Assembly: GCF_056746865.1 (NCBI RefSeq)
Contig: NZ_JBWKMP010000005.1
From: a plasmid
Length of the DNA: 64,000 bases
Reading direction: 5' to 3' (one strand)
Shown here: positions 3,001-15,000 of the stretch, piece by piece
Numbering within the stretch: position 1 is the stretch's first letter
Layout of the letters: every line of letters starts with the position of its first letter
Position numbers: made by a program

Positions 3001-6000
3001 TTGCCTGGTGTGTTGTTGCGCCCGTAGCTCGCTGACGCTCACACGCGCAGTACAGCGCCCCGCCCTGCTGCAATGCACCAGGACGGCGTAAACTCGCTGG
3101 CGCTCGCGCTAACTGCGGCATTCTGCGGCGCAAATCAGCATGATCATGGCCTGTCAGTCCGTTGGGCTTTGCAGGGTGAAGGGATGACCCTGTGCATCCT
3201 GGTATGTTCGTCAGCGGCTGCGCCGCGCTTCGGGGCGATGTGGCCCCGCTGCTCCCTGGTATTTCCTTTCGCCCCTTCTATCCGCTGACGCGGATTAAGA
3301 AATGAGCAAATCATCAAGTAAATTGCTGTTTTCAGGCAATAAATCTTGATAATACATCTAAATAGATGTATTATTATTTCATCGAAAGGGGATTGGCTCC
3401 TTTCCTTCTTAAGTCCAAACGGACAGGAGATTTAAAATGAAAACATTGACTTTTAATAACGGCACTGTTTCTGTTGGCGATGTGTTTGTATCTTCCTGGG
3501 GATATGAGCAAACGAACGTTAATTTCTACCAGGTTATTTCTGTTCATGGCAAAAAAACCGTAACTGTTCAGGAGATTCGCGCTTCAGTTCATCGGACTCA
3601 TTCAATGAGCGGATATAAGACCCCATTACTTAATGATTTCTGTGGTGAGCCATTAAAACGGCGAGTGCGTGATTATTACAGTACGCCAGCAATTGAAATT
3701 GAGGAATTCGAAACAGCATATAAAGGATCACCGGAAGAAAAACACGAGTTCACATCATACTACTAAGAAAATAGTTGCAGGGGGTATCCCCTGCAACCAT
3801 GTTAAAAATGTTAATAGTAGTAGTATTTACCCAGGGGGTTTTAGTATGAATGATGGGGTAAAACTCCGTCCTTCAGGGCGTGGAGAATGCCGGGCTAATG
3901 CAGCAATGTAATGTTGCGCCCGTAGCTCGCTGACGCTCACACACGCAGTACAGCGCCGCGCTTCGGGGCGATGTGGCCCCGCTGCTCCCTGGTATTTTCT
4001 TTCGCCCCTTCTATCCGCTGACGCGGATTAAGAAACGAGCAAATCATCAAGTAAATTGCTGTTTTCAGGAAATAAATCTTGATAATACATCTAAATAGAT
4101 GTATTATTGTTTCATCGAAAGGGGATTGGCTCCTTTCCTTCTTAAGTCCAAACGGACAGGAGATTTAAAATGAATATCCAGGAAGCATTAAACGTTTTTG
4201 GATTATCCGGCGAATTAACTGAAAAAGATATCAAAGCAGCATACAGAAAAGCCGCTTTAAAATATCATCCAGATCGTAACCCGTTAGGGGCTGAACTGAT
4301 GAAAGCGGTAAATGCAGCTTTTGATGTCTTGATGGCAAATATTGATAAAATAAATCAGTTCCAGAGCGCTGATGAACATGCACGATATAATTACGGTAAT
4401 GACCTGGAAAAAGTATTAAACGTTCTTTCTGGTTTATCTGGTCTGGTATTTGAAGTGATAGGTAACTGGGTATGGATTAGTGGAGAAACTATTACACATA
4501 AGGAAACTTTAAAAGAAATCGGGTGTAAATGGGCGGCAAAGAAAAAACAATGGTTTTATCGTCCAGACGAACATAAAAGTTACTGGAATCGTGAAGAACA
4601 CACGATAGAAGAAATCCGCGCAAAATACGGTACAACCGGACAGCGCAGGGCGACAGGGTGGCAACGCGTGGAAACCAGAGCGTAACCAGAACGGGGGCGA
4701 GAAGCCCCCGATATCATACCAGCCCGTCTTTTGGGGCATCGAACCCAAAAAGACGGGAACAGCAGCCACGTAGCAAAAAGGGAAACAGATGAACTCTTTT
4801 TTTGAACAATATCACCCTGTCTTTGAAGTTGTCTGCCGTATCCTGGGGAACGGCTGGCGCGTGAACAAACTTGATGATTGTCCGTCTCGTATAAAACTGA
4901 CGTCACCGCAGTTTAAAAATTACTCTGTGCATATTCGGATGGAAAAAGACCGATTTTCTGTTGTGGGGAGTGTGGATAGTCGTTCCTGGAGTAGTCCGTA
5001 TCATGTTTGTACGTTATCCAGGAAGCGGAATCCCGTTGATATAGCAGCCAATATCGAGCGAAAAATTTTGCTAAATGCTTCGCAGGAGGTGTTACAGGCG
5101 ATTGAGTATGAGAAACGCCAGGCGGCAAAAAAGGACGAAATTCTGATCCTGAAAGGTATGTTATCGCAACTTGTCCAGCTTGAAAGCTGGTATGGGGCAT
5201 TGACAGGCTTTAAAGCTGAAAATGGATTGAACGGTAAAGTCACCGAGCAGGGCGAGCGTTATGATTTGCAGATTAGGGGTTTGAGTATAGATCAACTTGT
5301 TAAAATTACAGGATATTTGAAACAGTTATGAGAAAAAACAAAGGGCGATTGACTTATTATCTTGAAGTGATTGATAAAAAATACCATTTTGTAAAAAAAA
5401 TAAGCAGTTATTCAAAGGAGTTCACTGACGGAAAAACAAAAAGAACAAAGAGAACGTTAAGTGAGCTGGTTTTTAATGAAAGTGAGGTCGAGGCAATAGA
5501 CTTTACAAAAAATGGTTTAAGACCTGTTGATAAGAATATTCTCTTAACTATGGTGAAAGAATATAAGGAGAGTGATGCATGACTATTGAAAATACACCGG
5601 AAAACATAAAGAAATTACGTAAAAAAATTGGCCTTACCCAGACAGAGTGCGGTGAGATTTTTGGCGTAGGCTTAAGTACATGGCAGAAAAAAGAAGCTAA
5701 AACCCACAACCAGCTTAATTTATCGAAAGGTGAATTTGAGTACCTGTTATTACTTGCAGGGGAGCACCCTGAATACGTCCTGCATAAAAAAGCTGAATCC
5801 CGCTCACCGGAGGAACCGTGAGCGAGAAGAAAAACACCACGACGCAGAAATCTAAGATATACAGTGTAAAGGTTTATTTGTCTTTACATTGTAATTGTTC
5901 TTTGTCTTTACACAGTGTGTGTTTGTAACAGGGCGACTTTACCCAGTGCGCCGTAAAGCCCCGTCCTTCAGGTCGGGGATATAAGGCGCGGTTTTCCACC

Positions 6001-12000: not shown

Positions 12001-15000
12001 ACTTGTTTCTTTTAGATCGTTTTTTCCCTCTTCTACTTTTTCTTTTATTTCATTATCCAGATCGCCGCACGTCTCAACAATATTCTTGAATCTTTGAATA
12101 TAGTCATTTTCTACAGATGAAACGACCTGTCTGAAGCCCTCAGACAGGGCAGTGAAGTTAGCTTGTAACTCATTGCTGAATTTTTCCTGTATCTTTTGGT
12201 TCAGAAAAATTAATGAAATAACTGGATCATCTTTTGATATTTTATGCCCTGTCTCCTTGAATACATCAACAATAAAATTATCAATATCTTCACTGGAAAC
12301 AGCCTTTTCAGGCTGTTTTAATTCTGGCTGATTAACTGTACTCATATTATTCACCGTGTTCATCGTCATAGATGCTATCTAATTGTTTGTAAATGTCATT
12401 GAAGACTCGTTTTAATCGTGATTTAGCCATTAATCCAAAATGGTCGGACTCAAGAGCTTCTTTCAGTGTTAGTGATTTTTCTGTTAGCTCTTTGATGTCA
12501 GAGGCAAAGGCATCACTTTTTCTGTCCTGAATAACCACAACGCCAGCGATTACATCCTTGTTTTTTTCAATGAATTTAGTTTCTATTAATGGGATATTTT
12601 CAAGTGCTGGAATACCCTGAAATTCATTTATCCAGACAATAAGTTTTACCTTACTTCCTTTAACCAGTTCTTTCAGTTCTTCAAATCCCTGCAAGGTATC
12701 CGCAAGAGCTTGTCCACCAACGATAACAGTATGGATATAAACGTCTTGTTCTACATCTTCAAACATGTCCATAACACAGTTATCATTGAAATACTGAATT
12801 AACGGTAAAAATGTAGATGCGCCATTGTCAATAACAAAAGTATTCTGACTATTGGTCAGCATTGATTCGAACATTGGATCGAATTTGGATTGTATTACTT
12901 TGCTGTTTTCAGTGATTTGTATCAAATCTGCATTTAATCTTTTTACTTTAACCGTAGTTGTATTAACCGGGTCTGTGTCACCGACTACGATATTATCCAT
13001 GTGATTTTCATCAATAAAGTATTGTGCCAGTATTGCGGTCGCGAATGATTTTCCAACACCACCTTTACCCTGAAGGATGAAATTGATTGAGTTTTTCATT
13101 TATAATGCTCCTTTACTTAAAGATATTTATTTATGAATTTTTCATTCGTAGCACTTGGATCGTGCTCTATTTCTTTTTTGTTCTCACTAATGTTTGAAAA
13201 AAAACCTTTTACCCCCCCTCTCGGTTCATCGCCTTTAGCTTCATTCTGATCAATTACATCTATGGTTTTTGCCTGTTCTTTTGGTTCAGTGCATTTTTGT
13301 CTTTTTTTAGCCCTCTCTGTCATATTTATATAAGTCTTTTGGGCTAGTTCTGTCTTGGTGTTGTTGTTTATGTAATCAGCTATTTGCTCCCATGTATAAT
13401 ATTTCTTTGCTTCAAGTATATTTTGCAAATACATATTGAAGACAGCCTGTTTTGATTTCGATTTTGTTTCGTTTATAGCCTCGCATATTGGAGATAATAA
13501 ACTCTCGATCTTTTTCATTTGTTACATTTCCTCTCTCTCTCTACCTCCTACATTGGCATAATACCTTATTTAAAGCAATTTGCTCGCCGTTTGTGTGGGT
13601 GATTATGTGGGTTGTTTTGTGGGTTGTCAATGGGGTTGTGGTCTTTTTTGTGGGTTAAAGTGTGGGCGATTGTGTGGGCTGTGTGTTTTGAGTTGTGGGT
13701 GATTATGTGAGTCATTGTGTGGGCTGTATGCACGGCATTTTTTTGTTCTGCTAAAACACAGGCACGATACCGATTGTACACAAGACCGTTCCGGTCATGT
13801 TACAATCGTGTGCCAAAGGGGGACGCCCCTTTGAAACCCCGAACGATGCAGCCGTTCTTATGCGGTTCTACGAACCTTGAGGACATATGAAGAAAAAAAC
13901 CAACAAAAACGTTCATGTAACATTCAGACTTACCGAAGAAGAATATGCTCCGTTCGATAGGGCTATAAAAGAGCTTAATATTAGTAAGTCTGAATTTTTC
14001 AGGCTGCTTACTATTGGTAAAATAAACACATATGCATCTGATAAACGTAACATACCAGAATACAAACGTTGTCTTTCTCAGTTGAGTTGGGCAGGAAACA
14101 ACATAAATCAAATAGCGCACCGATTAAATTCAGATCATTTAAAAGGTATTATATCAGAATCGCTTTATAAAAAGGTTTTAAATGGACTAATCGGTATTCG
14201 TGATCGCCTTCAGGAGATAGCTAAATGATTGTCAGATACGGTGGTGGTAATGATGGTATCGTTGATTATCTGATAAATGGTCGCAAAGCAGAACGCCAGT
14301 ACACGCGTGATGAACTTGATCATCGTGTTGTTCTTGATGGTGATTTACAGACTACAGATAAGATTATTGATTCTATTGAAAACAAAAGTCAGGAACGTTA
14401 TTTGCACATTACTCTGTCTTTTCATGAAAGTCATGTGTCGAATGAAGTGTTAAAGGCTGTTGTTGATGATTATAAAAAATTATTGATGAATGCTTATCAT
14501 CCTGATGAATACTCTTTTTATGCGGAAGCTCATTTGCCTAAAATTCGTCATATCCAGGATAATAGCACTGGTGAACTTGTTGAAAGAAAACCACATATTC
14601 ATATTGTAATTCCTAAAGTAAATTTGATTACTGAAAAGTTCCTAAATCCAGTGGGAGATGTTACCAAAGGGCATACAATTGAACAGCTTGATGCTATACA
14701 GGAATTTATTAATAATAAATATAATCTTGATAGCCCTAAAGACTATCCGCGTAAAGATGCGGATTACGGAAAAATTATAAGTAGAGTTAAGGGGGATCTT
14801 TACAAAGAGCATCACTCTGAATTGAAAGGTGAGTTGCTTTCGCGTATAGAGAACGAGAAAATTGAAAATTACTCTGTATTCAAAGATATTGTTGCAGAGT
14901 ATGGTGAACTTCGTATAAGAAATGCTGGTAAAACCAATGAGTATCTGGCTGTAAAATTGCCTGGAGATAAAAAATACACAAACTTAAAAAGTCCTCTTTT

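Follow-up and report, generated by a model that had tools for sequence, protein, structure and literature searches.

A repeated promoter-operator module and a J-domain operon in the putative leading region of an IncI2 mcr-1 plasmid: a candidate establishment regulon

What do the genes between the partition locus and the origin of transfer (oriT) of an IncI2 plasmid do, and do any of them form a system? We analysed a 64,000-nucleotide (nt) stretch, here called the window, which matches the Escherichia coli plasmid pVE362 (IncI2, MOBP, MPF_T, mcr-1) at 100%, and considered the interval that runs from just past the parA/ribbon-helix-helix (RHH) partition locus (78-1101) up to the intergenic region before nikA/mobC (13887). 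A preliminary description had placed here, between the partition locus and a candidate oriT, a gene set of undefined role that might be an establishment or anti-defence island. The open reading frames (ORFs) it listed are all present at or near their proposed positions, and the interval does lie between the par locus and the nikA and relaxase genes; in the sister plasmid pHNSHP45, deletion of the R64-like oriT region beside nikAB abolished transfer. The most informative features had been overlooked, namely a promoter-operator-leader module, a J171-o180-o84-HTH80 operon and a structured element termed block A. The interval is a mosaic of already explained parts and one coherent system. We see an even chance that this system, comprising o109, the J171-o180-o84-HTH80 operon and o97, is an establishment regulon resembling the CUP regulon of IncN plasmids, which would be induced on entry from three module copies, repressed by HTH80 and primed at block A, with J171 and o180 as its effectors.

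The control modules and the J-domain operon

The components of the system are the following (positions are those of the window; aa, amino acids).

2994-3442, plus strand: module 1, upstream of o109, with block A at 3005-3150, block B at 3233-3274, promoter at 3346-3374 and operator at 3352-3371
3437-3766, plus strand: o109, with an invariant SWGYEQTN..FYQV motif and the UniRef name 'YagA'
3903-4174, plus strand: module 2, upstream of the J operon, with a degenerate, internally deleted block A at 3903-4059 (minus strand), core at 3953-4174, promoter at 4079-4107 and operator at 4085-4104
4170-4685, plus strand: J171, a class-C J-domain protein with HPD at residues 33-35 (PF00226, NCBIfam DnaJ)
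4789-5331, plus strand: o180, the invariable partner of J171 (AlphaFold2 model with a pLDDT of 92)
5328-5582, plus strand: o84, a small operon protein
5579-5821, plus strand: HTH80, an Xre/MqsA-C-type helix-turn-helix (HTH) protein of 80 aa and the last gene of the operon
7696-8145, plus strand: module 3, upstream of o97, with block A at 7707-7852 (minus strand), promoter at 8049-8077 and operator at 8055-8074
8140-8433, plus strand: o97, found only on IncI2 and IncX-type plasmids

The modules rest on a backbone repeat of about 450 nt, found at 2994-3442 and 7696-8145, of which 222 nt, the core, recur at 3953-4174 and 42 nt at 8801-8842; three copies are counted in the window and two or three in related plasmids. 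The repeat extends through the start codons of o109 and o97, and the sequence upstream of o109, J171 and o97 is identical up to the ATG, with promoter, palindrome, leader and Shine-Dalgarno site included. The 109-aa and 97-aa proteins, previously said to lie on a repeated module, are thus present immediately behind the repeat and not on it, and only the backbone part of that module belongs here, the other part being two IS200/IS605 copies.

The module promoter, TTGATA-17-TATTAT, is near consensus (10/12) and the same in all three copies. A perfect 20-bp palindrome, ATACATCTAAATAGATGTAT, spans its spacer and -10 element and occurs exactly three times in the 64 kb, against 0.03 expected. The leader that follows contains two hairpins and then an AGGAG Shine-Dalgarno site, and the hairpin adjoining this site keeps its pairing through changes (CG in 9, GC in 7, UA in 1). 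The layout of -35 element, palindrome, -10 element and leader is kept across 17 plasmids while the palindrome sequence varies from one plasmid to another, a plasmid-specific palindrome being repeated at two or three promoters within each of the related plasmids L009, L011, L014, L017, L021 and L023. A palindrome that differs between plasmids and recurs within each is the pattern expected of a co-evolving repressor and operator. A GC-rich 42-nt segment, block B (GGGGCGATGTGGCCCCGCTGCTCCCTGGTATTTTCTTTCGCCCC; 3233-3274, 3966-4007, 7936-7977 and 8801-8842), is common to all four plus-strand promoters, that of hicAB included, and may be an insulator or terminator.

The J-domain protein with an HPD motif named in the preliminary description was confirmed: H33-P34-D35 is invariant in 28 homologs, the domain has four helices with an HPD loop, and a small C-terminal domain of beta-beta-alpha-beta-beta type follows. 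This two-part architecture reaches elements of Lachnospiraceae and Bacteroidetes at 27-39% identity; the gene context of the distant homolog in [Clostridium] citroniae (L044) was uninformative. The order J171, o180, small protein and HTH protein recurs in IncX4, in an IncX-like KPC plasmid, in R6K and in about 15 other Enterobacterales plasmids, and in two of these the operon lies between pir and the taxA/ddp1 relaxosome genes (23986-25622 of the R6K record, L060; 1028-2645 of the IncX-like KPC plasmid, L056). Wherever both are found on one contig (IncI2, IncX4, IncX-like, R6K (IncX2), L012, L013, L014 and L022), the J operon is upstream of the relaxase gene and points in the same direction. 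The gene ssb is a hallmark of leading regions, and in an Erwinia plasmid (L013) it stands at 12025-12543, directly downstream of the J operon. Searches of the literature found no study of the J operon, that of R6K included, or of leading-region expression in IncI2 or IncX4.

Which protein might act on the palindrome? The terminal HTH protein is the only DNA-binding protein that always accompanies the operator. Its presumed recognition helix carries Arg with CG half-sites and Ser with non-CG half-sites in 8/8 comparisons, which are phylogenetically non-independent. In two plasmids the o84-like and HTH proteins are fused into one protein of 229-238 aa (L015 11188-11877, L016 1416-2132), a hint that they act jointly. 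We infer from these sequence data that HTH80 is a candidate repressor of the palindromic operator.

The remaining proteins are less readily placed. Weak fold neighbours of o180 are secretion-chaperone, YbjN, PsiB, P1 DarA and immunity-like proteins, and for o109, o180, o84 and o97 sequence and profile searches of NCBIfam, PHROGs, PADLOC, Pfam and the Protein Data Bank (PDB) gave no function; no informative relatives were found for o97 and o84.

The position of the system relative to oriT bears on its role. By synteny with R64 and RP4, the relaxase genes are the last to enter the recipient. We infer by this analogy that the interval is the leading region, entering the new cell first, and that the transferred strand (T-strand) is the minus strand of the window. 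The nine plus-strand ORFs, which belong to o109, the J operon, o97, hicAB and a HicB stump, are oriented toward oriT, as are the leading genes of the F plasmid, and the probable T-strand would be their template.

Block A, a structured element upstream of the promoters

Two full copies of block A were found in the window, in addition to the degenerate one in module 2.

3005-3150, minus strand: block A copy 1, a GC-rich multi-helix element of about 140 nt (159.5 bits with covariance model R1; covariation)
7707-7852, minus strand: block A copy in module 3

Block A has a GC content of about 64% and is conserved even beside unconserved flanks. RNAalifold predicts a multi-helix fold that is more stable on the minus strand than on the plus strand (-45.5 vs -30.4 kcal/mol). 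A covariance model built on the minus strand, R1, detects between one and three block A copies at a locus; these loci belong to IncI2, IncX4, IncX-like, one IncF and several other plasmids. R1 matches are always opposite in strand to the downstream genes. Among 18 distinct sequences 95.6% of cells are paired, and compensatory double changes occur in 15/39 pairs; shuffled alignments give 7.1 ± 1.6 (0/500 attain the observed number) and slid controls 1-5. Read on the minus strand, G.U cells number 48 and A.C cells 4; a MAFFT alignment made independently of the model has 97.9% of its cells paired on the minus strand and 90.7% on the plus strand. The pairing and the G.U bias indicate that the structure has been selected on the strand that would be transferred.

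Rfam gave no match to 3005-3150 or 7707-7852 at E <= 1, and no minus-strand promoter was seen that could transcribe block A as RNA. Together with the covariation and the strand bias, these results lead us to take block A for an element of single-strand DNA whose most plausible role is that of a priming (ssi-type) site. R1 also gives weak matches to every CUP repeat of the IncN plasmid R46, on the probable T-strand there (14.5-19.9 bits, E 4e-4 to 6e-2), with a colinear helix layout. A wider proposal can be framed on this basis: block A would be a new class of structured single-stranded DNA on the transferred strand of IncI2, IncX4, related MOBP and, distantly, IncN CUP plasmids, directing the priming of the complementary strand just upstream of repressible promoters as an alternative to Frpo for early expression of leading genes, and the genes served would include a DnaK-redirecting J-domain/adaptor pair that aids establishment or defence evasion. 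In this full form we hold the proposal only tentatively and think it rather unlikely.

The proposed regulon and its alternatives

How the regulon could work can be outlined in a few steps. Each module would supply a strong sigma-70 promoter, a palindromic operator, a structured 5′ leader and a strong Shine-Dalgarno site. In an established host, HTH80 bound to the palindrome would hold all three promoters low; in a new recipient devoid of the repressor the promoters would fire once the DNA is double-stranded, until HTH80 shut them again (zygotic induction). Block A, about 200 nt upstream of the promoter, would fold on the transferred strand and nucleate priming of the complementary strand, and the primer would be extended straight through the adjoining promoter and gene, which would thereby become double-stranded first. 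The effectors would act on proteins, J171 recruiting host DnaK through its HPD J-domain and o180, with its chaperone/immunity-like fold, serving as adaptor or client binder of J171. A role of J171 and o180 in establishment via DnaK recruitment is the most economical guess that their sequences allow. The establishment part of the preliminary proposal is in keeping with this regulatory architecture.

The region would, on sequence grounds, be a leading-region regulon of CUP type that differs in repressor and cargo and has a structured T-strand element. As in the IncN CUP/ArdK system, several direct repeats of about 0.4 kb stand at the 5′ ends of same-direction leading-region operons, each repeat has a promoter and a repressor site (here at the sequence level), and the repeats mediate rearrangements; strong early expression in a repressor-free recipient followed by autorepression is likewise common to both, in the window by proposal. 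The two differ in that the candidate repressor here is an Xre-type HTH protein of 80 aa (R46 ArdK and ArdR, compared by BLASTP with the proteins of the window, had no meaningful match), the operator takes the form of a perfect 20-bp palindrome, the cargo is without ardA and ardB and includes the J-domain operon, and the hosts are MOBP (IncI2, IncX) whereas IncN is MOBF. J171 itself has a counterpart of sorts in Rki of phage RB43, reportedly described by Perrody et al. in 2012 as a viral J-domain protein: J171 too is a stand-alone HPD J-domain protein encoded by a mobile element that could redirect host DnaK, but J171 has a different C-terminal domain, is always paired with o180, is plasmid-borne and is linked to oriT.

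Several points weigh against this regulon as proposed. The MOBP nic consensus YATCCTGY has no match in the oriT interval 13519-13886, so that the T-strand is assigned by synteny with R64, RP4 and F, and the six ORFs adjoining oriT lie on the opposite strand, oriented away from it. Another repressor, such as the ParG-like RHH protein, could act in place of HTH80. For block A, the alignment used for covariation (A11) was fitted to the model, single-sequence folding is unremarkable (z of -1.3 and 0.0), and two mirrored strand-specific covariance models score the element equally and so do not discriminate between strands. The R46 CUP matches are weak, fall in DNA of about 80% GC and come from non-independent repeats, and R1 found no block A in R6K, though that plasmid carries the J operon.

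The consequences of the regulon would reach beyond this plasmid. The two main vehicles of mcr-1, IncI2 and IncX4, have the leading-region module and the J-domain operon in common. If the proposal holds, it would explain early, self-limiting expression after transfer in plasmids devoid of Frpo, ssb, psiB and ardA, R1 would be a searchable DNA structure that marks leading-region promoters, and the DnaK-recruiting module would become a candidate establishment factor through which spread might be blocked. If it fails, what is left would be a regulated array of cassettes with toxin-antitoxin (TA) modules.

An alternative use of the same genes is defence evasion, the other half of the preliminary proposal. 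In this account o109, J171-o180, o97, an Ead-like pair and a membrane protein (tm147) would be anti-defence proteins as Samuel et al. 2024 use the term, expressed early against restriction, CRISPR, SOS or other immunity of the recipient. Their location in the probable leading region and their orientation toward oriT fit, as does the membership of PsiB, P1 DarA and immunity proteins among the fold neighbours of o180. The strong repressible promoter and the terminal HTH gene recall acr-aca operons, in which inverted repeats also overlap a strong promoter and a small HTH gene (here a candidate autorepressor) ends the operon, although the first genes in the window are not known Acr proteins and one operator sequence serves three separate promoters. 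The plasmid, moreover, has no recognised anti-restriction gene: as the preliminary description had noted for ArdA, PsiB and Ssb, none of these nor KlcA was detected in the interval or is annotated anywhere on the plasmid, and no recognised anti-defence, SOS-inhibition, single-strand DNA-binding protein or methyltransferase gene was found by NCBIfam, PHROGs, Pfam and PADLOC or is annotated plasmid-wide. The same searches count against the account, because no homology to any known anti-defence protein emerged from NCBIfam, PHROGs (function-annotated families), Pfam, PADLOC or PDB sequences. Leading regions are enriched in a family that bears the name YagA, but o109 is tied to it by name only, and MOBP2 elements were not enriched (Samuel et al. 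2024). We rate an anti-defence island as unlikely.

A further motif introduces a different account. The sequence CTTTACAnTGTA occurs in 23 copies, against 1.3 expected, 22 of them in the par locus and leading region, where they are found at the parA promoter and at the edges of variable cassettes; a role as sites of the ParG-like RHH protein (78-362) or as recombination joints is possible.

8730-8770, 9595-9606, 10092-10128, 10221-10254 and 10637-10676: CTTTACAnTGTA arrays at cassette borders
390-404, 1116-1218 and 5860-5893: further CTTTACAnTGTA arrays

These arrays, common to the par promoter and the leading region, would suit a reading in which the region serves maintenance and competition, and the J operon is plasmid housekeeping, with J171 and o180 recruiting DnaK so as to activate or remodel one of the plasmid's own proteins, for instance a replication initiator, the relaxase or the partition complex. 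DnaK and DnaJ are generally known to activate the P1 RepA and R6K pi initiators, and the J operon adjoins pir in R6K; hicAB, moreover, has been shown to act in plasmid-plasmid competition (PMC11878559). Housekeeping nevertheless seems to us a doubtful explanation, given that the operon keeps company with MOBP relaxase/oriT regions whose replicons are unrelated (IncFII-type RepA in IncI2, pi in IncX) and that ssb adjoins it in the Erwinia plasmid.

It could also be that the interval has no collective function and is a dump of selfish cassettes, its repeats persisting mainly as crossover points for homologous recombination. Cassette content among IncI2 relatives does vary exactly at the repeat borders, recombination between CUP repeats has been reported in IncN plasmids and the IS insertions are tolerated; what makes this improbable is that distant plasmids conserve the order of the operon, the architecture of the promoter and, with compensatory changes, the structure of block A.

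The elements can finally be set beside Frpo/ssi of F and ColIb-P9, with which they share same-orientation repetition upstream of oriT-facing leading genes and a folded element on the transferred strand (probable in the window). They differ in having no sequence similarity and no hairpin that mimics a promoter; the window has a duplex sigma-70 promoter of the ordinary kind with an operator, and block A is multi-branched, GC-rich and about 200 nt upstream. DNA folds of both strands show local hairpins only and no long inverted repeats, and a Frpo-type hairpin at the promoter was rejected as a candidate. That such a hairpin promoter within the repeat transcribes the leading genes straight from the incoming single strand is very improbable, for despite the multi-copy, same-direction repeats, as in F and ColIb, and the folding of block A on the probable T-strand, no long inverted repeat puts the -35 and -10 elements in a stem, the block A helices are GC-rich with no -10-like hexamer, there is no similarity to IncF or IncI1 DNA, and R1 has no match in the F leading region.

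Parts of the interval with ordinary explanations

About half of the interval is ordinary, consisting of a transfer leader operon, TA addiction/competition modules, a decayed TA stump, Ead/Ea22 genes of phage type and insertion sequence (IS) elements. These parts and their neighbours are as follows.

1229-2969: IS200/IS605 copy 1, with tnpA and tnpB
5943-7690: IS200/IS605 copy 2, with tnpA on the minus and tnpB on the plus strand
8801-9519, plus strand: hicAB cassette, with a block B remnant at 8801-8842, promoter at 8863-8891, hicA and hicB
8927-9175, plus strand: hicA (PHROG E 1e-34)
9172-9519, plus strand: hicB (PHROG E 8e-50)
9607-10050, minus strand: tm147, 147 aa, with two hydrophobic segments read from the sequence
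10291-10590, plus strand: HicB stump, N-terminal domain only (86% identity to pHNSHP45 HicB, dN/dS 0.24)
10850-11176 and 11178-11618, minus strand: two Ead/Ea22-like paralogs (phrog_660, 1e-44)
11638-13518, minus strand: candidate leader operon, divergent from nikA/relaxase (TraL profile match and arrangement)
11638-12369, minus strand: TraM-like ORF (match at 1e-3)
12347-13099, minus strand: TraL homolog (NF010461, 1e-53, below the curated cut-off)
within 11638-13518, minus strand: orf133, 133 aa, in the TraK position (assigned by position)
14225-18538: relaxase, 1437 aa, LPD7-containing

Searched in NCBIfam, PHROGs, PADLOC, Pfam and PDB, much as had been advised at the outset, o109, o180, o84, o97, tm147 and orf133 yielded no function, so that the early impression of a gene set of undefined role holds for several ORFs; it does not hold for 11638-13518. 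The leader operon of IncP plasmid RP4 is traK-traL-traM, and 11638-13518 appears to have this type of arrangement beside oriT: the operon diverges from the relaxase operon at oriT and its TraL is homologous (1e-53). It differs from RP4 in that TraM is only marginally similar, protein searches detected no similarity for the protein in the TraK position, and the relaxase has 1437 aa with LPD7. The oriT-proximal intergenic region contains tandem GTGTGGG-type repeats (13582-13726), which overlap a minus-strand promoter, TTGACA-17-CATAAT (13630-13602), that faces the gene in the traK position. The middle of the relaxase carries a run of acidic (A/E)QATEQ repeats.

The hicAB genes do stand behind a consensus promoter, as first described (TTGACA-17-TATAAT, 8863-8891, 12/12). 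The two ORFs overlap by 4 nt, with the HicA toxin first and no internal terminator, as in the overlapping-ORF HicA(O)B subfamily defined in PMC11878559, and the window HicA and HicB share 97% and 95% identity with the IncX4 pair. On this sequence evidence the cassette appears to be an IncX4-type HicA(O)B addiction module; an IncI2 HicAB has been shown to be both an addiction and a competition module (PMC11878559). What had been taken for an orphan HicB-like protein is indeed an ORF at 10291-10590, and it proved to be a remnant of the HicA(T)B locus of pHNSHP45 that has lost its RHH domain, hicA and promoter by deletion. As an intact ORF with a dN/dS of 0.24, the stump could still neutralise HicA(T) of competing IncI2 plasmids and be an anti-addiction factor.

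The two-transmembrane protein and the paralog pair of the preliminary description were both recovered. For tm147, NCBIfam, PHROGs, PADLOC, Pfam and PDB searches gave no function and no informative relatives; the Ead/Ea22-like paralogs share an N-terminal repeat of 138 nt that is 88% identical.

The two IS200/IS605 copies are 100% identical, each lies 3′ of TTAC at the equivalent position in two backbone repeats, and both are missing from most IncI2 relatives; they are recent insertions that stand outside the regulon system. Apart from one GcvB-like match, the only Rfam matches were sub-threshold ones at the 3′ end of each tnpB (HgcC, RAGATH-18, sot0042), as an omega RNA there might give. At about 3880-3920, upstream of the J-operon module, a hairpin (CTCCGTCCTTCAGGGCGTGGAG) resembles IS200/IS605 ends. 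Relatives devoid of the IS have this hairpin too; it has the look of a relic IS end and may account for the truncation of module 2. A sub-threshold GcvB-like Rfam match at 10621-10751 on the plus strand (29 bits, E 0.0035), which may be a small RNA or chance, ends in a good intrinsic terminator at 10724-10744.

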